Shown here: in pieces, positions 7,260 through 30,269 of the stretch | How the letters are laid out: each line of letters starts with the position of its first letter | How positions within the stretch are numbered: position 1 is the stretch's first letter | Assembly (NCBI GenBank): GCA_016218805.1 | Contig: JACRCW010000114.1 | Coordinates: forward strand, 1 to 32,233 | Direction of reading: 5' to 3' | Source: Deltaproteobacteria bacterium | Lineage (GTDB): Bacteria > Myxococcota > JACRCW01 | Length of the DNA stretch: 32,233 nucleotides | Program-made: the position numbers and the translations under genes | Notes under the pieces: generated by a model | The model's input: the letters and a program-made list of their open reading frames with translations, nothing else | Database searches by the model: none | Told to the model about the DNA's origin: nothing

Positions 7260-8267
7260 TCACGCCCTGTGGATTGGCTCGGAACGGATTCCCGCGTCGG
7301 AAACTACGCGTTGTGCCAGTGCTTCAAACAGTGCGTAGGTATCCCTGACCGCGGCGGCGTGACCGCCAATCGCGCCGTCCGCACCGGTGAGCATGAACAC
7401 CGGCCGGCGCGCGTCCTGCGCCATGGGCATCAGGCTCTTGAAGTGTTTCACCTCGGCCAGGCAGGCGCTGGGCAGGACAGCGTCGCTCCCAAGGATGGAG
7501 TGCGCATAGACAGCCGGGATGCGGGCTCCCCACCTCGCGTACGCCTGCACAGGGCGGTTCTGTCGCATGGACGGGCTCATCAACACGTAGCCCAGCGGTG
7601 CCATGGAGCCCAGCGGCAGTTCCAACCCGGGAGGAACTGTCCGGCGGACGCGGCGTTCATTCCACCCCTCCCGCCACTTCCTCAGCGTGCGGCCAAGGTT
7701 GCGCAGCCCCTGCAGTGAAAACAGGTCTGCGGCCAACGGGATGACGACGTGGTCGGACGCCACCAGCGCTGCGCGGTTCAATGCTCCCACGCTCGGTCCC
7801 ACGTCCACCAGGGCAACTTCGAAGCCCCCGCGGTCACGCGCCGCCGCAATGATGCGATGGAATGCGCTGATGACCCGGAACCCGTCCCGTGCAACCGGCC
7901 TGTCATCGGTCAGGCAATCTGCCCAGCCCTTGGACAACCGCTCTTCAAACTCCCCCAATCCCAGGTCTCCCACCACAAGGGACAGGTTGTCCGCAATCCG
8001 GACGGCCTCCACCGGCGCAATGTCGCCTTCGTGCTCCATGAGCGGGGAAACCGCACCGAGGATGGTGCGTGGGTGCGGTCCCTCCGGCCAGAATTCCTCC
8101 AGTTCTTCATCCTGCATGAATGCGGCGGAGAGGTTGGACTGGGGGTCCAAGTCAACCGCCAGGACCTTCACGCCCAGTTCCCGGAACATCCAGGCCAGGT
8201 GATACAGCAGGCTGGTCTTACCCACGCCGCCCTTGTTGTTGAAGAACGCAATGGTCTTGAAGCTCAC
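7260..8267 (-). CDS. ParA/Soj-like ATPase, extended orphan type with no parB
   Basis: Deviant Walker A FFNNKGGVGKTS, VDLDPQSNL, LVDVGPSVGALNR, DLFSLQGL. GTG start overlaps the upstream stop (GTGA, 8264-8267). Confidence 0.9.
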   Translation of the reverse strand: MSFKTIAFFNNKGGVGKTSLLYHLAWMFRELGVKVLAVDLDPQSNLSAAFMQDEELEEFWPEGPHPRTILGAVSPLMEHEGDIAPVEAVRIADNLSLVVGDLGLGEFEERLSKGWADCLTDDRPVARDGFRVISAFHRIIAAARDRGGFEVALVDVGPSVGALNRAALVASDHVVIPLAADLFSLQGLRNLGRTLRKWREGWNERRVRRTVPPGLELPLGSMAPLGYVLMSPSMRQNRPVQAYARWGARIPAVYAHSILGSDAVLPSACLAEVKHFKSLMPMAQDARRPVFMLTGADGAIGGHAAAVRDTYALFEALAQRVVSDAGIRSEPIHRA

Positions 8268-9451
8268 GTGCGTCTCCTTGCCCGCGCGTGGAAGAAGGAA
8301 GCCGTGGGTTCCAGCAGCAGAGGGGCATTGGCATTCTTCTGCAGTTCCGCATCCACAATGGCCAGCCCGCGCCCAAACCGGTTCACAAAGCCCAGCACCT
8401 TGGCGACCTCTGCGACAACCGGATTGCGGTACGCCGTCCCATGTCTGGGGTCACCTTGGGACAGGTCTCCGTAGAGGCCACCTGGGTTTGAGATCTCCAG
8501 GCGATCTGAGAACACGTTGATGCTGATGGGTGTGGTTGAGCCATCATAATTGCGGTGGATGACGGCGTTCATGAACAGTTCGTGCAACGCCACGGGAGGC
8601 CATGCGTAGTGGGTCACCTCTGACAGGTCTGGCGACCTCACCGGGCGCGCTACTGCCAACTCGCGGGCCAAGCTGTCCAGGTCCCGCATCACGGTAAGCA
8701 GGTCTCCGTGGATGCGCCGCTCCTGTAGGACCGCGGCCGTCATGTCCTCACCGTCGTAATTGACGTATTGAACATAGGCGCCAGGTACATGGGCCAGTGG
8801 GTCCTTGCCAAGAGCCAGGACAGCGGCGTTGGTTGGTGCTCGTCGCCGCAAGTCGTACATTCTGAGCGCCGCAAGCCTCTCTTCAACGGTCCTGCCGTTG
8901 GCATCCAGGACCGGCTTGGCCACCGCGCGCGGCAGGATCTCGTTCTCAAAAATGCCCAGGGCCAGGTCCTCCAGCCGCGCCCCAGAGGCAGCTCTCATGT
9001 CCCAGGTCTTGCTGTTGTCAGTGGCCCGTTCGCTCAGCCGCCGCTCTTCCTCCACCGTCGCTCGTCCCCGCCGGGGGCCGATCCGAACGTGGGTGACCCC
9101 CCGGTACCGGACGGGTGGGCGCTCCGATGGCTCCACCTTCACCACCAAGACCTCGCCATCCGAAAGTGGCACCCTGTGAACCGACATGATGGGCGGCGGG
9201 AGAATGGTGCCGTTGCTCCGGACATCCGCGAGGTTGACCATGAGCTGGTCTGTCACAGCGATTCCCGTGGGCCGACGTGTCTGGGGATCCACGCCGATGA
9301 CGAGGAAACCTGGCTTGCCCGTGGCCGGCAGGTCATTGGCAAACGCGCAGATGGCCTCCGAGAACTTCCCGGTATCTGTGACTGAGACCGTCAACTCAAC
9401 GCGATAGGACTCATCAGCGGCCAGGACGTCCTCAACCTCCGATGGTTCCAT
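8264..9451 (-). CDS. Schlafen/AlbA_2 domain + HATPase_c_4 (RecG C-terminal-like) protein
   Basis: N-terminal DESYRVEL...AICAFAND...GFLVIGV (AlbA_2); C-terminal ALHELFMNAVIHRNY...DRLEISNPGG...RNPVVAE...VNRFGRG. GGAG RBS; no C-terminal HTH. Confidence 0.85.
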   Translation of the reverse strand: MEPSEVEDVLAADESYRVELTVSVTDTGKFSEAICAFANDLPATGKPGFLVIGVDPQTRRPTGIAVTDQLMVNLADVRSNGTILPPPIMSVHRVPLSDGEVLVVKVEPSERPPVRYRGVTHVRIGPRRGRATVEEERRLSERATDNSKTWDMRAASGARLEDLALGIFENEILPRAVAKPVLDANGRTVEERLAALRMYDLRRRAPTNAAVLALGKDPLAHVPGAYVQYVNYDGEDMTAAVLQERRIHGDLLTVMRDLDSLARELAVARPVRSPDLSEVTHYAWPPVALHELFMNAVIHRNYDGSTTPISINVFSDRLEISNPGGLYGDLSQGDPRHGTAYRNPVVAEVAKVLGFVNRFGRGLAIVDAELQKNANAPLLLEPTASFFHARARRRT

Positions 9452-22712: not shown

Positions 22713-22955
22713 ATGGACACCACCGCAGAGCAGGATGCCGTCTACATGGACCTCGTCCGCAAAGCATCCACCGCACAGCGGGCCCGCGTGGTCGGCGCGT
22801 TGTCGGCGGGCGTGCGCCGCATGGCGGAGGCGGGCATCCGCGAGGCGTTCCCCGCCGCAACGGACGAAGAGGTCGCGGTACGGGTCGCAATGCGCCTCTA
22901 CGGTCGCGATGTGGTGCAACGCGTGCTCGGCCGCGTTCCCCCGGACGCGCGCTGA
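22713..22955 (+). CDS. Small helical protein, probable antitoxin/partner of the downstream nucleotidyltransferase
   Basis: 80 aa, MDT...AGIREAFPAATDEEV...RLYG, a pattern I associate with small genes upstream of minimal nucleotidyltransferases. Stop lies 4 bp before the next ATG. Confidence 0.65.
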   Translation: MDTTAEQDAVYMDLVRKASTAQRARVVGALSAGVRRMAEAGIREAFPAATDEEVAVRVAMRLYGRDVVQRVLGRVPPDAR

Positions 22956-22959
22956 GCCC

Positions 22960-23202
22960 ATGGACTCCATCGACGTGGCGGTACGGGTGGGTGAAGCGCT
23001 GGACCGCGCGGGGATCGCCTATTTCGTCGGGGGCAGTCTCGCGAGTTCATTGCAGGGTGAGCCGCGCGCAACCAACGACATCGACATCGTGGTTCAGGCT
23101 GGAGTGCCGGACCTCGGCAGGTTGGCGCACACGTCGGAGGTGCGAAGGTCACCGGCCCAGCGCCCGGTTCACAATCCGCGCATGGTCTCCTCAATCAGGT
23201 AA
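22960..23202 (+). pseudogene. Truncated minimal nucleotidyltransferase (Pol-beta fold, toxin-like)
   Basis: MDSIDVAVRVGEALDRAGIAYFVGGSLASSLQGEPRATNDIDIVV carries the GG...RxTxDxD motif. The ORF is only 80 aa and its last 13 codons plus stop come from the antisense of the duplicated ligase 3' end. Confidence 0.72.
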
Positions 23203-23252
23203 TCCACAACCTTCTTGAGGTCCCCGTTGTTCTTCTCCGCCACTTCAATCTG
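23161..23252. repeat. 92-bp direct repeat, orphan copy of the 3' end of the carboxylate-amine ligase gene (other copy 23565-23656)
   Basis: Manual alignment: 90/92 identical at offset 404; mismatches at 23201/23605 and 23244/23648. Confidence 0.95.
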
Positions 23253-23276
23253 AAACGGATCCGCCCGAGCCACCTT

Positions 23277-23406
23277 GTAGGGCGGTAGGCTCGTCCCCCG
23301 CCCGGGTCACTCGTACGCGAGCGCGCGTCGGCCGACGTGGCGGAGGGGCCATTTCGTCTGAACGGCCCTCTATCTCTATCGGGCGGGGGACGAGCCCCCG
23401 CCCTAC
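23277..23406. repeat. Inverted GTAG-REP doublet (REPIN-like)
   Basis: GTAGGGCGGTAGGCTCGTCCCCCGCCCG at 23277-23304 (+) and GTAGGGCGGGGGCTCGTCCCCCGCCCG on the minus strand at 23380-23406; each is an imperfect hairpin; 75-bp spacer. Confidence 0.82.
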
Positions 23407-23422
23407 GACGATCTGCCCGCGG

Positions 23423-23528
23423 GACATCGCGAACCACGCGCGGCGCCATCCGCGAACCACGCGCGGGACCATCCGCAAACCACGCGTGGCACCATCACGA
23501 ACCACGCGCAGGACCATCCACGAACCAC
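23423..23528. repeat. Degenerate tandem repeat, about 5 x 22-23 bp (consensus ACCATCCGCGAACCACGCGCGGG)
   Basis: AACCAC cores at 23432, 23455, 23478, 23500 and 23523. Confidence 0.88.
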
Positions 23529-23572
23529 TGGGTTGTCCAACGCCCCGTGCGGCACCCATCCGGCCGCCCGGT

Positions 23573-24679
23573 TCACAATCCGCGCATGGTCTCCTCAATC
23601 AGGTAGTCCACAACCTTCTTGAGGTCCCCGTTGTTCTTCTCCGCCACCTCAATCTGGCGGTGTGCGCTGGTGCCCTCCCGCGCGATCTTCTGGATGAAGT
23701 CCAGGTGGCTCTCCGTGCCCAGCACCTGCGCCGCGGGGCGGACAAACTCACACAGTTCCGGCGCCAGCTCCACAAACGGCCGCTCTTCCTTGCGCCCGAA
23801 GTCAATGAGCTTGGCATCCGTCCCGTACCGCAGCGCGCGCCACTTGTTCTCTTCAATCAGCCCGCGCCCGTAGGAACGCCACTGCCGGTTCCCGCGGTAC
23901 AGCAGATACAACTGCGCCATCAGCGCCTGGATGAGCGCCACCACGGCCACCGTGTGGTTCATGTTGGTGGGCATGTCGCAGATGCGCACTTCCACGGTGT
24001 CGTACAGGTAGTGCGGCCGCACGTCCCACCAGATGCTCTTGGCCGAATCAATGCACTTGGTCTGGATGAGCAGCTTCACAAACGCCACCAGGTGCTCATG
24101 GCTGTCAAATTCGTCCGGGATGCCGGTGCGCGGGAACCGCTTGAAGATGTTGCAGCGGTTGCTCATCAGGCCCGTGCGCCGCCCCAGCCAGAACGGTGAC
24201 GACGTGGTCAACGCCAGCAGGTGCGGGAGGAAATAGCGGACCTGGTTGGCCAGGTGCACCGCCGTCTCCTTCTCCTTGATGCCCACGTGCACATGCAGCC
24301 CAAAGATGAGGTTGCCGCGCGCCACGTCCTGCAGGTCGTGCACAATGTTGTGGTAGCGCTCGCGGTCGGTGATGTCCTGGGTCTTCCAGTCACTGAAAGG
24401 ATGCGTGGACGCGGCAATGATGCGCAGGCCGCCGCGGCGCGCCAGCTTGTCCAGCTCGCTGCGCATCTCCACCAGCTCCTGGCGGACCGCCTTCACGTCG
24501 GAGCAGACGCTGGTGCCCACCTCCACCATGGATTGGTGCATCTCCGGGCGGACGCGCTCGCGCAGTACGCTCTTGCCGTCCTCCAGCAGCCGGCTGACGT
24601 AGGACCGCAGCTCCCGCGTCTCGGGATCCACAATCTGGTATTCCTCCTCCACGCCCAGCGTGAACTGTCCGTCGAGCAT
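23573..24679 (-). CDS. ybdK: YbdK/GCS2-family carboxylate-amine ligase (putative glutamate--cysteine ligase 2)
   Basis: FTLGVEEEYQIVDP, VEVGT, ASTHPF, IFGLHVHVG, SSPFW, FPRTG, IWWDVRP, TVEVRICD, ENKWRALRYG. GGAGGAG RBS before ATG 24679. Confidence 0.95.
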   Translation of the reverse strand: MLDGQFTLGVEEEYQIVDPETRELRSYVSRLLEDGKSVLRERVRPEMHQSMVEVGTSVCSDVKAVRQELVEMRSELDKLARRGGLRIIAASTHPFSDWKTQDITDRERYHNIVHDLQDVARGNLIFGLHVHVGIKEKETAVHLANQVRYFLPHLLALTTSSPFWLGRRTGLMSNRCNIFKRFPRTGIPDEFDSHEHLVAFVKLLIQTKCIDSAKSIWWDVRPHYLYDTVEVRICDMPTNMNHTVAVVALIQALMAQLYLLYRGNRQWRSYGRGLIEENKWRALRYGTDAKLIDFGRKEERPFVELAPELCEFVRPAAQVLGTESHLDFIQKIAREGTSAHRQIEVAEKNNGDLKKVVDYLIEETMRGL

Positions 24680-24788
24680 CTCTGCGTCTCCTCCGTGGTC
24701 ACTCGCGCCGCCCCCGCAGCGCCCTTGCGTCCAAGTCACAGTGCGGTGCCGGGCGCCCGGGCGTCAACCCAACGCGCCAGCCGGCGCT

Positions 24789-25535
24789 TTAACGGTGCAG
24801 GTCCGGCTCTTCCAGCAACGCGTCGGATCGGCGTGACCACTGCCGGTAGAGAATCCACCCACCCCACGCGCAACCCACCACCATCAGCGCGCATCCGGCC
24901 GCGAACACCACCTTTGCCAGCGAATGATCCCGCCGCAGCCAACCCAGCGTGGACAGGATGTTGTGCCAGTCATGGCGCGCGGCACGCGCCTCCAGCGCTT
25001 CGTCACTCCACTCGCCAATGAGCGGCATGGCCAGCGAACGCGCGTCATCCACGTACGGCGCCAGGTCCAGCAGGGACTGCCCCAGCCACCACGTGCACAC
25101 GGCCGCGCCAAACGGGTTGCGCTGCCCGAACACAAACGCGACGGCGAGGACGCCGGGCACCAGCAACTGGAACAGGCTCCCGCCCAGGAACATCATGAAG
25201 CGGCCCAGTGGCGTGAAGACCAGGTGCCCGAACTCGTGGAAGGCCAGGTCCACGCGGTGCAGGAAAGATCCGTTGAGCACTTCAAAGTCCACGCCGCGGC
25301 TGATGAACCACGCGCCCCACGGCACCAGCAGCGCCAGCACCGCGGCGCGGCCGGCCCAGTTCATCCGGTTGACGTGCGGGGGGACGTACAGCAGCGCGTC
25401 CAGCACGCGGCGCCCCAGGCTCTCCGTGGGGACCTGTGCGTCATCCGCCGCAAACACGGCCACGCAGCGGTCACACTGCGTCTGGCCGGGGGCGGCGGGG
25501 GCGCCGCAACGCGGGCAGCTCATGGGGGCGGGCAT
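24789..25535 (-). CDS. Zinc-ribbon + integral membrane HExxH protein (M50B-like metallopeptidase candidate)
   Basis: CPRCG...CDRC; TM helices; DLAFHEFGH, LGGSLFQ, APYVDDA, HDW. Start 25535 or 25523. Confidence 0.75.
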   Translation of the reverse strand: MPAPMSCPRCGAPAAPGQTQCDRCVAVFAADDAQVPTESLGRRVLDALLYVPPHVNRMNWAGRAAVLALLVPWGAWFISRGVDFEVLNGSFLHRVDLAFHEFGHLVFTPLGRFMMFLGGSLFQLLVPGVLAVAFVFGQRNPFGAAVCTWWLGQSLLDLAPYVDDARSLAMPLIGEWSDEALEARAARHDWHNILSTLGWLRRDHSLAKVVFAAGCALMVVGCAWGGWILYRQWSRRSDALLEEPDLHR

Positions 25536-25663
25536 GGGGCAGCAGGGTGCCCAAAAGCGGGGCGGCTTGCACGCGCTTGGCAGACGGGTCACCCCGCGTG
25601 GTACGGCGCGCCGCAGCCGGGAGAACGCCACCTTCCCGGCCCACCTGCCAGGAGGCCACAACG

Positions 25664-26602
25664 ATGCGCGTCGGAATCATGCGGGGCCGGGAGAACAGCT
25701 TCCCCAACGCCCTCATCGAGAAGATCAACGGGATGAAGGGCGGCATCACCGCCGAGTTCAACATGATGGGCGGTACGTCCATGGGGGAGCCCAACCCCTA
25801 CCGCGTCATCCTGGACCGCATCTCGCACGAGGTGCCGTACTACCAAGTGTATCTCAAGCAGGCGTCCATGCAGGGCACCTACGTCATCAACAACCCGTTC
25901 TGGGTGCACCAGGATGACAAGTTCTTCGGCTACAGCCTGGCGCAGCGCCTGGGCATCCCCGTTCCCAAGACGGTGGTGCTGCCCAACCGGCAGCACATTG
26001 CGGACATCTCACCGGAGAGCCTGCGCAACCAGTGGCCGGTGGACTTTGAAGCGCGGCTCAAGGAAGTGGGCCTGCCGTGCATCATGAAGCCCGCCTTTGG
26101 CGGCGGGTGGAAGAACGTGCACAAGATCCACAACCTGGATGAGTGCATCCAGAAGTACAACGAGTCCGGCCAGCTCACCATGATGCTGCAGGAGTTCATC
26201 CAGTGGGATGACTACATCCGCTGCCTGGTCATTGGGCGGAAGTACACGCGGCCCATCCGCTACATCCCGCGGCCGTTTGCCCGCGGCGAATACGTGCAGG
26301 ACCTCTCCGTCCTCAACAAGAAGCACGCCGCCAAGGCGGAGGAGTTCTCCGTCCTGTTCAATGAGGCCATCGGCTACGACACCAACGCCATGGAGTTCGC
26401 GGTGCGCGGTGACACGCTGTACGCCATAGACATCACCAACCACGCGTGCGACATGGACCACAACAGCCTGCGGGACGCGCATTTCCCGTGGACCGTGGAG
26501 CACGTGGCCAAGTTCATTGTGGAGACGGCCAAGAGCGACGCGCGCAACAAGGCCTGCGCCGCGTGGGAGAAGTACAAGGACAAGGTGACCGTGAAGGCCT
26601 GA
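25664..26602 (+). CDS. RimK/glutathione-synthetase-like ATP-grasp ligase
   Basis: GGAGG RBS; ILDRISH, VINNPF, DDKF, GIPVPKT, IMKPAFGGGWKNV, MLQEFI, MEFAVR, YAIDITN. Confidence 0.88.
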   Translation: MRVGIMRGRENSFPNALIEKINGMKGGITAEFNMMGGTSMGEPNPYRVILDRISHEVPYYQVYLKQASMQGTYVINNPFWVHQDDKFFGYSLAQRLGIPVPKTVVLPNRQHIADISPESLRNQWPVDFEARLKEVGLPCIMKPAFGGGWKNVHKIHNLDECIQKYNESGQLTMMLQEFIQWDDYIRCLVIGRKYTRPIRYIPRPFARGEYVQDLSVLNKKHAAKAEEFSVLFNEAIGYDTNAMEFAVRGDTLYAIDITNHACDMDHNSLRDAHFPWTVEHVAKFIVETAKSDARNKACAAWEKYKDKVTVKA

Positions 26603-26667
26603 CGGTATCTTGAACCGGGACTGGGACGACCTGTAGCGTGCGCAGGCCCCCCACCCCGGAGCCGCGC

Positions 26668-28749
26668 ATGGCCGAATCTCCCGCCCCCCCTGAACCCGGC
26701 ACTCCCCCCGAAGTCCCTGACCTGCCCGGCGGTGCGGACGAGCCGCCTCCCGCCGCCACCGGCGCGGGTTGGAAGACCTACATGGTGGCCGGCGTCGTTG
26801 CCGTGTTCATCATTGGCGGCGCCGCCTTTGGCGCCATGAAGTACAAGCAGATGCAGGAGGAGGAGGCCGAGCGCCTCAAGGCGGAGGCCGCCGCCGCGGC
26901 TCCCGCAGCGCCGGCGCCACCGGCCATTCCCGAGGGACCGTGGGAGCGCTGGGATCCCGGCGCGGACGGGAAGGCGGCCATTGAGAAGGCCAACACGGCC
27001 GCTGCCGCGGATGCGGTGCTGCTGGCGGGCAACAAGGTGGCCGCCGAGTTGGCCAAGCGCGCATTGGAACCGGAGGCGCCGGTGGTGACGTTGAAGTTTG
27101 GGCAGGAGGGCGCGGACCCCAAGCCGCCGCACCCGTTGACGGCGCGGCTGCCCACCGCGCAGGCGCTGCACAAGATCAGCACGGAGGTGGAGGGCACCCT
27201 GGGCCTCAAGGTGCGCCTGCTGCACGCGTGGAACTCCGCCGCGGAGTTCAAGGCGCTGCAGGATGCCGCGCCCACGCTGGCGGCGGTCCCCGGGGGGGAC
27301 GCCCACTTTGCTGACGCGGTGGACATCTCCAACACGGACGGCGCGGGCAAGAAGGCGCTCACGCTGGGGACGGACGGCAAGGTCATCTTCCTGGAGGAGG
27401 TCCAGGACAAGTCCGGCCTGCCGCGCTTTGAGGCCGTCATTGAGAAGATTGAGGCGGACGCCATCAAGGAGGCGCCCAAGAAGAAGAAGGCGGTGGTGCA
27501 GGCCTGGGTGGACTCAGTGGAGCAGGACTTCCACAACGGCGTGTGGGGCGTGCACGACGCCACCATGGAGGTGTGGCAGAAGAACGGCTGGGCCATTGGC
27601 CATTGCGGCGAGGTCCAGGCGCGGTCCTGGCACGCGGAGCCGGTTCGGACCATGAAGGACTGCACGCGCTTTTCCGGCGCGTACAACGAGCGCATCCGCA
27701 ACTACCACCTCAGCGCCGGCGCTTCGGAGCCGTACGTGATGGCGGCCATGGAGCTGGCCCGCAAGGGCGGGGACCTGGAGCCCTACCTGATGCCGGAGCC
27801 CGAACGCGAGTTGAATGACGCCGTCAACGCCTCCCTGCCGGACAACTTCACGCTCATTGGCTTCAACCGCGTGAGCCCCAAGGTTTCCGGCAAGGCGGAG
27901 GACTGGGACGCGCCCATTGTGTTCCTCAAGATGGGCGGCGTGGACCGCAAGGGCCGCGTGCAGCGCGTGCTGGGCCGGTTTGCCACCGCCAACGCGGTCA
28001 ATGAGATTGCCAAGGAGATTGAGGCGACCTTTGGCCTCAAGGTCCGCGCCAACTTCCTGTGGCGCACCAACGCGGTGCAGCACGCGCTGCGCACGGCCAA
28101 TCCCAAGCTGGCCGCGCTGCCGGGGACGTCCAACCACTTTGTGAACGCGGCGGACATTTCACGCGCGGAGGCCACCGGGAAGAACGTGCTGACACTGGGG
28201 ACGGACGGGAAGATCATCATGCTGGAGGACCTCAAGACGCCGGAGGGGCTGGCGCGCTTCAAGGAGGTCATCAAGCGCATTGAGGCGGACGAACTGAAGA
28301 AGGCCGGCAAGAACCAGAAGCGCGCGGACAAGGTGGTGGACGCGTGGGTGAAGACGGCGGAGGAGGACCTCAACGCGGGCGTGTGGGGCATGACGGACGC
28401 CACCATGGACATCTGGCGCAAGCACGGGTGGACCACCGGCCACTGCGGCGAGATTGCCTATGAGAGCTGGCACACCGAGCCCATTGGCAAGATGAAGAAG
28501 TGCGACCGCTGGGATGCCACGTACAACAAGCGCATCAAGACCTACCGCAAGAAGCCGCCGCCCAGCGAAGACGCGGTGTTTGAGCTGGTGGAGGCGGTGT
28601 TGTCCAAGCCGCTGCCCTCCGCCGCCGAGTTCAAGAAGGCTGCCGCCAAGAAGGGCGGCGGCGGCGGGTGCAAGGGCATCGGCTGCCTGGAGAAGGCGGC
28701 CAAGGACGTCATGAAGATGGGCGGCGGCATGTTTGGCAAGAAGAAGTGA
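26668..28749 (+). CDS. Membrane-anchored protein with two tandem M15/VanY-like (LAS) peptidase domains; only the second has a full catalytic motif set
   Basis: Pro-rich N-terminus and one TM helix. Internal duplication (GLKVR...LTLGTDGK...GVWG.DATM..W.K.GW..GHCGE...SWH.EP). Repeat 2 has WRT...Q, PGTSNH, AAD and ESWH. Confidence 0.75.
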   Translation: MAESPAPPEPGTPPEVPDLPGGADEPPPAATGAGWKTYMVAGVVAVFIIGGAAFGAMKYKQMQEEEAERLKAEAAAAAPAAPAPPAIPEGPWERWDPGADGKAAIEKANTAAAADAVLLAGNKVAAELAKRALEPEAPVVTLKFGQEGADPKPPHPLTARLPTAQALHKISTEVEGTLGLKVRLLHAWNSAAEFKALQDAAPTLAAVPGGDAHFADAVDISNTDGAGKKALTLGTDGKVIFLEEVQDKSGLPRFEAVIEKIEADAIKEAPKKKKAVVQAWVDSVEQDFHNGVWGVHDATMEVWQKNGWAIGHCGEVQARSWHAEPVRTMKDCTRFSGAYNERIRNYHLSAGASEPYVMAAMELARKGGDLEPYLMPEPERELNDAVNASLPDNFTLIGFNRVSPKVSGKAEDWDAPIVFLKMGGVDRKGRVQRVLGRFATANAVNEIAKEIEATFGLKVRANFLWRTNAVQHALRTANPKLAALPGTSNHFVNAADISRAEATGKNVLTLGTDGKIIMLEDLKTPEGLARFKEVIKRIEADELKKAGKNQKRADKVVDAWVKTAEEDLNAGVWGMTDATMDIWRKHGWTTGHCGEIAYESWHTEPIGKMKKCDRWDATYNKRIKTYRKKPPPSEDAVFELVEAVLSKPLPSAAEFKKAAAKKGGGGGCKGIGCLEKAAKDVMKMGGGMFGKKK

Positions 28750-28781
28750 AGCGGTGTGGAACCGCCGTCCCGCTGGTCGCT

Positions 28782-28813
28782 GCGGCGGGGCCTGTACCCG
28801 CCGCGGTGCGTGA
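28782..28813 (+). repeat. REP-like palindrome, second copy (GTAG decayed to GCTG); may act as terminator or stabiliser
   Basis: GCGGCGGGGCCTGTACCCGCCGCGGTGCGTGA is the reverse complement of 1479-1510 with 1 mismatch; it starts 33 bp after a stop codon. Confidence 0.75.
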
Positions 28814-28903
28814 TGATGTCAAACCCCATTCCGTTCCCTGCGGCGGCTGCAGCTGCCGCCGTGACGACGGATTTCCGAGTTCACTGACAACAGGAGGAAG
28901 ACC

Positions 28904-29299
28904 ATGAGCAAGACGTTGGCAGCTGTGTGTGGCGTGGTGGTTACCGGATTCCTGGCCGGCCTGGCCTGCGGGTCCAGCAAGGCCGAACAGAAGCCGGAAG
29001 AGAAGACTGAGACCGGCGCCCCCGCCGCCGCGGCAGCGGAAGCGCCCAAGCCGTGCGATCTGTTCAAGCAGGACTGCGCGGAGGGCCAGGCGTGCACCTT
29101 TGCGCAGGGCCAGTCCGTGTGCGTGGCGTCCGGCGCGGCCAAGGATGGTGACCCGTGCAAGACGGGCAATGACTGCGGCAAGGGCCTGTTCTGCACGTCC
29201 GCCGGGTGCAAGGCCATCTGCGACGCGGCGCACCCGTGCGCCGGGGGCGTCAACTGCACCATGTTCACCAACAACAACACGCTGGGCGCCTGCCAGTAG
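28904..29299 (+). CDS. Small Cys-rich lipoprotein
   Basis: AGGAGG RBS, signal peptide with GLAC lipobox, Ala/Glu linker, 12 further Cys in the C-terminal domain. Confidence 0.85.
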   Translation: MSKTLAAVCGVVVTGFLAGLACGSSKAEQKPEEKTETGAPAAAAAEAPKPCDLFKQDCAEGQACTFAQGQSVCVASGAAKDGDPCKTGNDCGKGLFCTSAGCKAICDAAHPCAGGVNCTMFTNNNTLGACQ

Positions 29300-29391
29300 C
29301 GTGCTTGCACGCACCCTCCCCGCGGCATGAGATGGCCGCGGTGGAGGTGGGCGTGGTCAAGGTCTGCTCTCCCGCATCCTGCGGCGCGCCG
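29212..29391. repeat. 180-bp direct repeat, left copy (right copy 30090-30269)
   Basis: Manual alignment at offset 878. Differences: TAG/CAG (29297/30175), one extra G in GGTGGGCG, and AAGGTCTG versus AAGGCACTG. Confidence 0.95.
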
Positions 29392-29415
29392 GATCGCACC
29401 ATCGGCCTGACTTCG

Positions 29416-29793
29416 TCATGAATCGTCGGGGGCGGCTGGCGGCCGAGTGATCCGCAGCCTGTTGGCGGTGGCGACGACAAAACACCGCCGGAATGTGACT
29501 GCATCTGGCGAGGTCAACCATCCCACCACGTAGTCGGCCACGCGCCATTGCTCAGCGTCTGGCAACAGCACCAGCAAGATCCCGTGGTGGTTACCGGGTG
29601 CGAACTTGCGGACGTCAGAGAAATCCAGGTCCTGCGTGACAAGAAACCGCTCCTGGGCTTGCGCTTGCGCCCAGATATCCCCGTCGGGATGTCCGCGGAG
29701 CCCTTCATCGTGGACGGTATGGACATCAAGACCCCGCGCGAGGAGGCGCCTGGCGGCCGACGTGGGAATGTTCTCGTCGAGCTTGATCTTCAC
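29416..29793 (-). CDS. PIN-like toxin (DUF5615 / VapC45-like)
   Basis: MKIKLDENIP, DVHTV, PDGDIW, FLVTQDLDF, HHGILL. GTG overlaps the antitoxin stop. Confidence 0.9.
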   Translation of the reverse strand: MKIKLDENIPTSAARRLLARGLDVHTVHDEGLRGHPDGDIWAQAQAQERFLVTQDLDFSDVRKFAPGNHHGILLVLLPDAEQWRVADYVVGWLTSPDAVTFRRCFVVATANRLRITRPPAAPDDS

Positions 29794-30041
29794 GCGACCT
29801 TGACCTCAGGAGGAATGGGGGCCGGGGCCGGCAGGTCTTCGCTCGCAGCCGCGGCGGCAAAAGCAATGACGGAGCGGACGTCCTCCACGGTGAGGCTGGG
29901 GTACTCCCGCACAATGACCTCGGCGCTATCACCATGGGCAAGGCAGCCGAGCACGGTGCGCACGAGGACGCGTGTCCCGCGGATCACCGGTTGGCCTCCG
30001 CAGATGGATGGGTCCCTCACAATGCGTTCCTGGAAGGTCAT
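29790..30041 (-). CDS. DUF433 antitoxin
   Basis: MTFQERIVRDPSICGGQPVIRGTRVLV...LAHG....I..EYPSLT.EDV; GGAGG RBS before ATG 30041. Confidence 0.92.
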   Translation of the reverse strand: MTFQERIVRDPSICGGQPVIRGTRVLVRTVLGCLAHGDSAEVIVREYPSLTVEDVRSVIAFAAAAASEDLPAPAPIPPEVKVA

Positions 30042-30089
30042 GCCGCCTCCGTGTTGCACCCATGACGATACCGCCGGCCGGCCAAGGAT

Positions 30090-30269
30090 GGCCATCTGCG
30101 ACGCGGCGCACCCGTGCGCCGGGGGCGTCAACTGCACCATGTTCACCAACAACAACACGCTGGGCGCCTGCCAGCAGCGTGCTTGCACGCACCCTCCCCG
30201 CGGCATGAGATGGCCGCGGTGGAGGTGGCGTGGTCAAGGCACTGCTCTCCCGCATCCTGCGGCGCGCCG
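30090..30269. repeat. 180-bp direct repeat, right copy; contains the functional start of the HDAC gene
   Basis: Aligns to 29212-29391 with the three differences listed for the left copy. Confidence 0.95.

Follow-up and report, generated by a model that had tools for sequence, protein, structure and literature searches.

In the genome of an uncultured, myxobacterium-like bacterium of the phylum Myxococcota (Deltaproteobacteria bacterium, GenBank assembly GCA_016218805.1), two small inserts lie within about 7 kb of one another, each enclosed by long direct copies of a host gene boundary. Both are carried on contig JACRCW010000114.1, the 32,233 nucleotides of which were analysed at full length and are referred to below as the window. 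One insert encodes a predicted toxin-antitoxin (TA) pair and is flanked by 180-bp copies (case 2), and the other consists of non-coding DNA with a doublet of repetitive extragenic palindromic (REP) sequences flanked by 92-bp copies (case 1). We consider that both structures are probably insertions with long target duplication, whereby short foreign DNA would have been joined into a host gene boundary, leaving the stretch of target between the joints, 92 or 180 bp long, present on either side of it. Neither the cargo nor the window would supply the enzyme for the insertion, and the route would be one of host recombination or repair. The architecture is already known, and what is new here is the class of cargo and an unusually rich genome.

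The source assembly is metagenome-derived, 92% complete, and comprises 170 contigs (denoted by C-numbers, in genome G000, the window being C80) with a total of 6.43 Mb and 70% G+C. The comparison genome from the same family was G001 only, with about 80% identity in conserved genes. Gene calls beyond the window were made with a crude caller based on G+C content at third codon positions (GC3), and cargo was identified with Pfam and PADLOC.

The clearer structure is that of the TA cassette. Its flanking repeats are direct and align over 181 columns at 97.8% identity (E 9e-82 against the whole assembly); an ungapped core of 139 nt is 99% identical, the remainder is reached via two 1-nt indel sites, and four columns differ in total. 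The sequence occurs exactly twice in the assembly. Each copy spans the last 88 nt of a gene for a 131-aa Cys-rich protein, including its TAG stop codon, a 52-bp spacer and the first 40 nt of a gene for a histone-deacetylase-family (HDAC) protein. The 131-aa gene runs without a break into the left copy, and the right copy likewise into the HDAC gene; as the duplicated stretch is attached to the upstream gene on one side of the cargo and to the downstream gene on the other, the undisturbed order would have been gene, target, gene with nothing between. The 131-aa protein, judged from its residues, is possibly a lipoprotein.

The pattern of divergence between these copies follows the needs of the host genes. 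The TAG stop of the 131-aa gene (29297-29299) reads CAG in the right copy, and the redundant HDAC start in the left copy is disrupted by one extra G and by a 1-nt indel with a substitution. All four differences thus sit in the half of a copy needed by no gene, and both the 131-aa gene and the 590-aa HDAC gene are open and full length.

Between the copies, two small, adjacent, co-oriented genes are predicted, on their domain matches, to encode a type II TA pair with a DUF433 antitoxin (79 bits, cut-off 23.6) and a PIN-like DUF5615 toxin (72.4 bits, cut-off 23.8). The DUF433 start was placed at the ATG at 30041 by likeness to relatives at loci L052 and L056, described below; a longer reading frame, extending to 30206, enters the right copy. 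The GC3 values of the cargo, 0.74-0.80 as against 0.85-0.93 in neighbouring genes, indicate a foreign codon composition, and the cassette has no second copy in the genome.

The case 1 repeats are also direct, with two mismatches over 92 bp (97.8% identity, E 1e-38 against the whole assembly), and their sequence is likewise present in exactly two copies. They hold the last 28 codons and the stop of a gene for a carboxylate-amine ligase of the GCS2/YbdK family together with 8 nt downstream, the stop lying at 23573-23575 and its copy at 23169-23171. The 388-aa GCS2 gene is open and full length. Its ortholog in G001, used as an outgroup, carries the bases of the right copy at both variable sites, which marks the left copy as the derived, decaying one. 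The REP doublet consists of two inverted GTAG-headed palindromes that form one long hairpin (fold -84 kcal/mol, z -3.5), and it belongs to a family dispersed over 27 merged sites in the genome, while the 23-nt tandem array that follows it is unique in the genome.

The observations in an earlier note on this DNA, made from the sequence alone, were largely borne out by these comparisons: there are two layouts of target copy, cargo and target copy, both duplications span a stop codon, the duplicated host genes (GCS2, 131-aa and HDAC) are intact, and self-comparison finds the two duplicated sequences unrelated to each other. The window also appears to lack a recombinase, transposase or reverse transcriptase (RT), as had been claimed, none being found among its open reading frames (ORFs) scanned with Pfam, several of which have no Pfam match at all. 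The statement that both cases are at or next to TA-type genes holds for case 2, which encloses a TA pair, and is weakly true of case 1, which merely abuts a 48-residue stump of a nucleotidyltransferase. The coordinates of all these features, and the cargo found at other loci, are collected in Table 1.

Table 1. Features of the two window loci (positions in the window) and toxin-antitoxin or defence-type cargo between direct repeats on other contigs of the assembly.
Feature	Position or contig	Strand	Basis and remarks
80-aa ORF, family unknown	22713..22955	+	no Pfam or PADLOC match; directly upstream of nucleotidyltransferase fragment
Truncated nucleotidyltransferase-fold gene, N-terminal 48 codons	22960..23103	+	tblastn alignment to C57 and C73 paralogs ends at residue 48; Pfam match weak, below cut-off
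Case 1 copy A1, pseudo-copy of GCS2 gene end	23161..23252	-	2 differences, GC-to-AT, at synonymous sites
Case 1 cargo, 312 bp	23253..23564	.	REP doublet ~23276-23407, then 23-nt tandem array 23425-23528 (family D5)
Case 1 copy A2, functional GCS2 3' end	23565..23656	-	continuous with 388-aa ORF; ancestral bases at both variable sites
Host gene, carboxylate-amine ligase, GCS2/YbdK family, 388 aa	23573..24739	-	Pfam GCS2 E 9e-60, full profile; G001 ortholog 79% identical
Host gene, 131-aa Cys-rich protein	28904..29299	+	ORF; hydrophobic N-terminus, then Cys; no Pfam family
Case 2 copy A1	29212..29391	+	functional 131-aa gene end with TAG, 52-bp spacer, frameshifted pseudo-copy of first 40 nt of HDAC gene
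Case 2 cargo, toxin-antitoxin operon, 698 bp	29392..30089	-	48 bp before antitoxin ATG, 24 bp past toxin stop
Predicted PIN-like toxin gene (DUF5615 / PIN_10), 125 aa	29416..29793	-	Pfam E 3.5e-20 and 4.3e-6, both above cut-off
Predicted DUF433 antitoxin gene, 83 aa	29790..30041	-	Pfam DUF433 E 2.3e-22; 4-nt overlap with toxin start
Case 2 copy A2	30090..30269	+	pseudo-copy of 131-aa gene end (TAG is CAG), spacer, functional first 40 nt of HDAC gene
Host gene, histone-deacetylase-family protein, 590 aa	30230..32002	+	Pfam Hist_deacetyl E 2.7e-33; orthologs at 45-54% identity in other genomes of the phylum
Cargo DUF3368 + UPF0175	C113		Pfam/PADLOC
Cargo UPF0175	C1		Pfam/PADLOC
Cargo BrnT	C98		Pfam/PADLOC
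Cargo DUF4160 + DUF2442	C54		Pfam/PADLOC
Cargo HicB	C101		Pfam/PADLOC
Cargo Uma2	C126		Pfam/PADLOC
Cargo HEC-01/DUF4276	C124		Pfam/PADLOC
Cargo IetA-like ATPase	C69		Pfam/PADLOC

Evidence from reads was sought in Logan k=31 contigs of four groundwater metagenome runs from one study, including those denoted X1, X2 and X3. All four case 2 junctions are present in these contigs at even depth. A contig of X1 (record 7, covering 29321-30119) begins inside the left copy, crosses the entire cargo and ends in the right copy, at a depth of 26.8, as compared with 24.6 and 22.1 for the flanking contigs, such that the cargo is single-copy relative to its flanks, and a contig of X3 (record 22), derived from a different sample, links the cargo, by way of the right copy, to the HDAC gene. 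Given that the joints between the end of the left copy and the cargo, and between the cargo and the start of the right copy, are both present, an insertion without duplication cannot account for them.

The layout recurs throughout the genome. Self-comparison of the assembly for two-copy repeats of 45-450 bp, with at least 90% identity and at most 6 kb apart, yielded 26 direct and no inverted pairs at 23 loci, to which one separately found 35-bp case was added, giving 24. A stop or start codon of an outward-running gene lies within a repeat copy at 16 of the 24 loci, as against 571 of 3000 random placements (19%; P ~5e-7). The repeats range from 35 to 366 bp and the targets are the ends of unrelated protein genes. 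Both the recurrence of the integrase-free layout and its enrichment at gene ends, which the earlier note had put forward for testing on the two cases alone, are thereby supported. Its expectation that the cargo would be of TA or defence type was realised unevenly. Such genes are frequent among the cargo (Table 1), and two of the two UPF0175 genes and one of the two DUF433 genes of the genome lie between repeats of this kind; other families, considered below, show no such excess, and the remaining cargo consists of ordinary or unknown genes, including an S15 peptidase, YceI and a sigma factor with a kinase. On C54, the cassette encoding DUF4160 and DUF2442 proteins is 677 bp long and bounded by perfect 35-bp direct repeats (C54:57477-58223; L123 978-1724), and the gene just downstream reads, from its sequence alone, like a diphosphomevalonate decarboxylase.

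Sites lacking the cargo in related genomes, which had been suggested as a check, were found for one analogous locus and for a relative of the cassette, and not for the two window loci. Repeats of 69 bp enclose the IetA-like ATPase gene on C69, whereas in G001 the two ABC-transporter genes concerned abut, the IetA-like gene is absent and one 37-bp stretch aligns to both copies, constituting an empty site. No usable synteny across the site was detected in genomes G001-G003 for the loci on C54, C113, C143, C124, C132, C161, C43 and C136, and no flank match for that on C98.

The cassette was further examined in 80 loci (L-numbers) encoding proteins 45-61% identical to the DUF5615 toxin of the window. 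The relatives are spread over many phyla and a DUF433 gene adjoins the toxin gene in all 80 loci. These loci contain 24 pairs of direct repeats that are 40 bp or longer and 500-1500 bp apart, and 10 of the 24 enclose the TA operon, where 2.08 would be expected; the pairs derive from seven of the 80 loci. In L052, an Akkermansia-like metagenome-assembled genome (MAG) of the Verrucomicrobiota, a 690-bp cassette whose toxin is 51% identical to that of the window is enclosed by 44-bp copies from the 3' end of a 1170-aa gene, and five of seven relatives' loci lack the cassette and carry a single sequence that aligns to both copies, an empty site. A sixth relative, L137 (G074:C324, ~1312-1748), has kept just the last ~133 bp of the toxin gene beside the end of the target gene and looks like a cassette caught in decay. 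In L056, the 44-bp repeats that flank a TA relative reproduce the final 42 nt of a 285-aa gene. This locus was rejected as an example of a clean empty site as its right flank is not conserved, seven relatives' loci having the host gene and neither a TA gene nor the right-flank gene within ~1.5 kb.

For the events behind these structures, we tentatively favour, with rather less than even confidence in the route as a whole, a two-step process. First, illegitimate joining would link the cargo to a piece of the target region carried by a plasmid, by a transforming fragment or by an excised circle; homologous recombination within that piece, by a single crossover or ends-in, would then duplicate it. 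Two other routes appear less likely, each to about the same degree: staggered breaks followed by fill-in and end joining, for which a Ku protein is encoded elsewhere in the genome, and template switching during replication, first to the cargo and then back to a point upstream. The finished unit could subsequently enter empty relatives by plain homologous recombination or be lost by recombination between its own repeats, and the redundant half of each copy would then decay. Single-crossover capture and loss through the repeats, both raised in the earlier note, are possible. A contig of 2225 bp with a 105-bp terminal overlap, C134, was examined as a candidate excised circle and rejected, since it is part of a repetitive Cys-rich gene, a paralog of which is on C156.

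The cargo ends of the 23 loci have no k-mer of 7-9 nt in common beyond the random level, which argues that the event is not site-specific and leaves the shared junction motif anticipated earlier without support. Immediately outside the repeat ends, identity is at the random level of 30%, with no microhomology there. Each host gene keeps one complete end, either a stop or a start with its upstream region, and an insertion of this kind would therefore cost nothing and be tolerated. Addictive cargo would be retained preferentially, which would explain how often TA pairs occur among the survivors. The excess of gene boundaries and of addictive cargo is best read as survivorship, in which only insertions that spare both genes are tolerated and only cargo that punishes its own loss resists deletion by way of the repeats.

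A number of results weigh against interpreting both structures as insertions with long target duplication. For neither window locus was an empty site found in G001, among the HDAC orthologs or in two scans of metagenome contigs. G001 is not syntenic at these loci: its GCS2 gene has a different convergent neighbour 7 bp away, and its copy of the gene for a 703-aa protein is on another contig than GCS2. In four other genomes of the phylum, different genes precede the HDAC ortholog, and the scans of metagenome contigs, made with the 703-aa protein and with a codon-degenerate pattern of the 131-aa gene end, yielded nothing. Insertion at the window loci is accordingly argued from composition, from the pattern of decay and by analogy. 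Moreover, the four runs come from a single study and X1 may be the source of the assembly. Among the genomic loci, that on C160 is a tandem duplication of DUF559 and that on C107 a tRNA-flanked island. The enrichment of TA genes is partly post hoc, since families chosen independently of the cargo list show none: PIN genes are found between repeats in none of five instances and Uma2 genes in one of 35, as compared with 11 of 300 control genes under a looser criterion. With respect to case 1, usable flanks exist for 22 REP sites, of which 18 lack a flanking repeat of at least 20 bp and three that have one lie in tandem arrays, leaving the window site as the only clean one of the 22, and case 1 may be the result of a separate process from case 2. 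REP insertion as a general cause of long duplications was rejected on the same count. Finally, the staggered-break and template-switch routes fit the visible data as well as the favoured one does; nothing separates the three, and the mechanism is inferred.

Of the competing explanations, the one that survives best, although we judge it unlikely, is that the repeats are attL and attR sites of small integrase-less elements moved by a tyrosine recombinase in trans, or remnants of larger islands that have kept an addictive TA pair, with the element itself having brought the copy of the gene end. Phages, as in the case of phage 21 and e14 at icd, integrate into the 3' end of a gene and bring a spare end with them; in these, as in tRNA-targeting islands and integrase-less cis-mobilisable elements, a duplicate end keeps the gene whole, the flanking repeats are direct and decay affects the displaced copy, as is observed here. 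The genome yields eight Phage_integrase matches. The classical integrase footprint is seen in L050 (3668-4576; Candidatus Angelobacter MAG), where a TA cassette of the same type, 811 bp long, is bordered on either side by the 3' half of a tRNA gene, in perfect 49-bp copies that enclose no integrase. On C107, a 2.5-kb integrase-less island with an HTH/Peptidase_M78 gene is flanked by 100-bp repeats that begin inside a tRNA gene (C107:13640-16311; L034). The second DUF433 gene of the genome lies ~550 bp beyond this island.

The phages and islands just named carry or depend on a tyrosine recombinase and a fixed core, whereas no integrase was found in or near either insert among the window ORFs scanned, the eight matches being on other contigs. 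The 23 loci show no common core at their cargo ends, a test that a different recombinase acting at each locus would escape, and the variable repeat lengths and protein-gene targets described above differ from integration at tRNA genes. For eroded islands, it is further relevant that margins of 24-48 bp remain beyond the TA genes, as erosion would rarely leave so little on both sides while sparing an unprotected pseudo-copy.

We give very little credence to an assembly artefact, in which strain variants or a graph loop would have been joined and the chromosome would carry a single copy of the target. Caution is warranted with a metagenome assembly of 170 contigs, the copies being about 2% apart, which is also a typical distance between strains, and contigs of X2 jump from 23202 to 23607, omitting exactly 404 bp, and from 29211 to 30090, omitting exactly 878 bp. 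These skipping joints, at depths of 3-5, cross identical stretches of 41 and 85 bp, which exceed the 31-letter word, and may thus be graph paths; the cargo is present in X2 at flank-like depth, and the skips were not counted as empty or excised alleles. The junction words occur in the independent k=31 contigs, with the case 2 cargo at flank depth in X1, every difference between copies falls at a functionally free position, and analogous loci have empty sites in other genera.

The assembler may also have shaped what is visible. Three contig ends (C113:1-139, C124:36306-36444 and C5:3240-3378) have 139 identical bases in common, a repeat which breaks the assembly and hints at the assembler's word length, suggesting that long perfect repeats cannot be assembled. 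Young long duplications would then be under-counted and the divergence of about 2% in both window pairs says little about their age. The idea that the similar divergence reflects a single event was dropped on account of this bias.

Local tandem or segmental duplication of a gene end, followed by divergence or deletion such that the supposed cargo is native DNA, appears similarly improbable. The prevalence of direct repeats, 26 to none, would be expected from tandem duplication too, the locus on C160 arose in this way, and the case 1 cargo belongs to a resident repeat family. Against this stand the undisturbed order deduced above for case 2, the foreign GC3 of the TA pair and the scattering of its relatives over many phyla, and the empty sites corresponding to C69 and L052 mark the cargo as the added part.

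Insertion primed by an RT, or effected in trans by an HUH-type single-strand transposase such as a REP-associated tyrosine transposase (RAYT), is scarcely credible even though the case 1 cargo is a GTAG-headed REP doublet of the kind thought to be moved by RAYTs, the genome has two Y1_Tnp matches, the case 2 cargo is about the size of one transcript and target-primed reverse transcription yields variable duplications in eukaryotes, given that there is no RVT_1 match in the 92%-complete assembly, no REP head on C54, which has the better Y1_Tnp match, the nearest one to the other match, on C163, lying 11 kb away, and that most REP sites lack long flanking repeats and the cargo ends a common motif. 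The RT- or nick-primed route and the accompanying RT or RAYT envisaged earlier found no support in this assembly. Case 1 resembles REPINs in having two inverted GTAG-headed palindromes that form one hairpin and belong to a dispersed family; it differs in that no RAYT flanked by the same REPs was found in the assembly. IS200/IS605-type enzymes are not known to leave a target duplication, and a duplication as long as 92 bp would not be anticipated from REPINs.

Insertion with long target duplication, which we continue to prefer for both window loci, is said to have been first seen for Helicobacter pylori restriction-modification (R-M) units, by Nobusato et al. 2000 (Gene 259:99). Integron cassettes provide a different parallel, in that they are minimal, promoter-poor units of one or two genes, with TA pairs common among them, as in the chromosomal-integron TA cassettes mentioned in part of a 2013 review (PMC3874152); they have attC ends and lie in arrays beside intI, whereas here the flanks are local host sequence and the loci are scattered. 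The sections of the same review concerned with R-M systems repeat the long target duplication for these and do not say it of classical TA pairs. Among the papers found by literature search, none reports insertion with long target duplication for TA pairs, as far as titles and the beginnings of abstracts disclose.

The R-M units were treated at length by Furuta, Abe and Kobayashi in 2010 (PMC2853133), who describe, in the portions of the paper that bear on the subject, insertions of all R-M types in several phyla, with repeats of 30 to more than 400 bp and no mobility gene. The mechanism is stated there as unknown, with double-strand breakage by the restriction enzyme proposed, and of the suggested cycle of invasion, amplification through the repeats and release, amplification alone is reported as demonstrated. 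Such insertions, after that work, are recognised by direct repeats of more than 30 bp, a unique target, an empty site in a relative, an insert shorter than 20 kb without a mobility gene, and the presence of R and M genes. The window loci have repeats above 30 bp, a unique host sequence in two copies and inserts of 312 and 698 bp without a mobility gene. The notion that the arrangement was possibly undescribed is thus not sustained, the architecture having been published for R-M systems from 2000 on.

The likeness to the R-M units of PMC2853133, as far as that account goes, extends to a small unit lacking integrase and transposase between direct copies, tens to hundreds of bp long, of a unique target that often overlaps a gene 3' end, and to an addictive, selfish gene pair as cargo. 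Relatives of the R-M loci have the target once; for the window loci no empty site was found in the genomes and metagenome contigs compared, such sites being seen for C69 and L052. The window loci differ in their cargo, which is a type II TA pair with a PIN-like (RNase-type) toxin or a non-coding REP doublet, with no R or M genes. Since the cargo includes no restriction enzyme, the double-strand cut of its own that was proposed as the trigger for R-M units is not available here and, since the scar surrounds a pair whose toxin belongs to an RNase-type family, self-inflicted DNA cleavage was probably not the trigger.

A wider proposition, which we advance as doubtful, is that insertion with long target duplication is a general recombinase-independent route of gene gain and no peculiarity of R-M systems. 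It would be carried out by host recombination or repair with cargo that need not cut DNA, it would account for some twenty recent gains in this genome, among them TA pairs, defence and ordinary genes and a REP doublet, and for the travel of the DUF433/DUF5615 cassette across phyla, and addictive cargo would survive by blocking loss through the repeats. The matter bears on a question that has been open since the R-M cases of 2000, namely how small selfish or defence units reach ordinary chromosomal sites without a mobile-element gene. That such insertions are tolerated is explained by the duplication, which leaves the genes on either side and their control regions intact, and the flanking repeats would let a unit amplify, excise and transfer by plain homologous recombination, with consequences for the spread of defence and addiction modules. 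One genome with about two dozen loci, all direct and mostly at gene boundaries, provides a set that can be mined for the rules of the process.

Some further observations concern the surroundings of case 1 and the REP family. The 57 bp that follow the nucleotidyltransferase stump (23104-23160) match nothing. The C57 paralog of this gene is full length (186 aa) and lies behind an Rv0078B-type antitoxin; the 80-aa ORF of the window was considered as such an antitoxin and rejected, as it has no similarity to the partner of the C57 paralog. A contig of run X2 tracks the window as far as 23092, inside the stump, and then runs on in frame with other sequence, and may represent an intact allele of another strain or a paralog of another organism. 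On C161 (19541-23601; L029), a pseudo-copy of the 3' end of a helicase-like gene, made up of 155 bp and another 52 bp from 380 bp deeper in the gene, has a Uma2 gene on one side and a directly adjoining REP copy on the other, 3.7 kb from the real gene end, with the S15 peptidase gene between.

Elsewhere in the window, a pair of genes on the reverse strand (7260-9451) encodes a ParA-like ATPase (AAA_31) and a protein with Schlafen AlbA_2 and HATPase_c_4 domains; their codon composition falls below the threshold of the caller for host genes and the two may have been imported as a defence-type pair. Within the gene for the 703-aa protein, which is of unknown family, a stretch of ~200 nt is duplicated at ~75% identity (27415-27612 and 28246-28452, 831-840 nt apart). 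Directly after the HDAC gene, at least nine head-to-tail copies of a 21-nt unit extend to the contig end (32027-32233), and this array probably broke the assembly.

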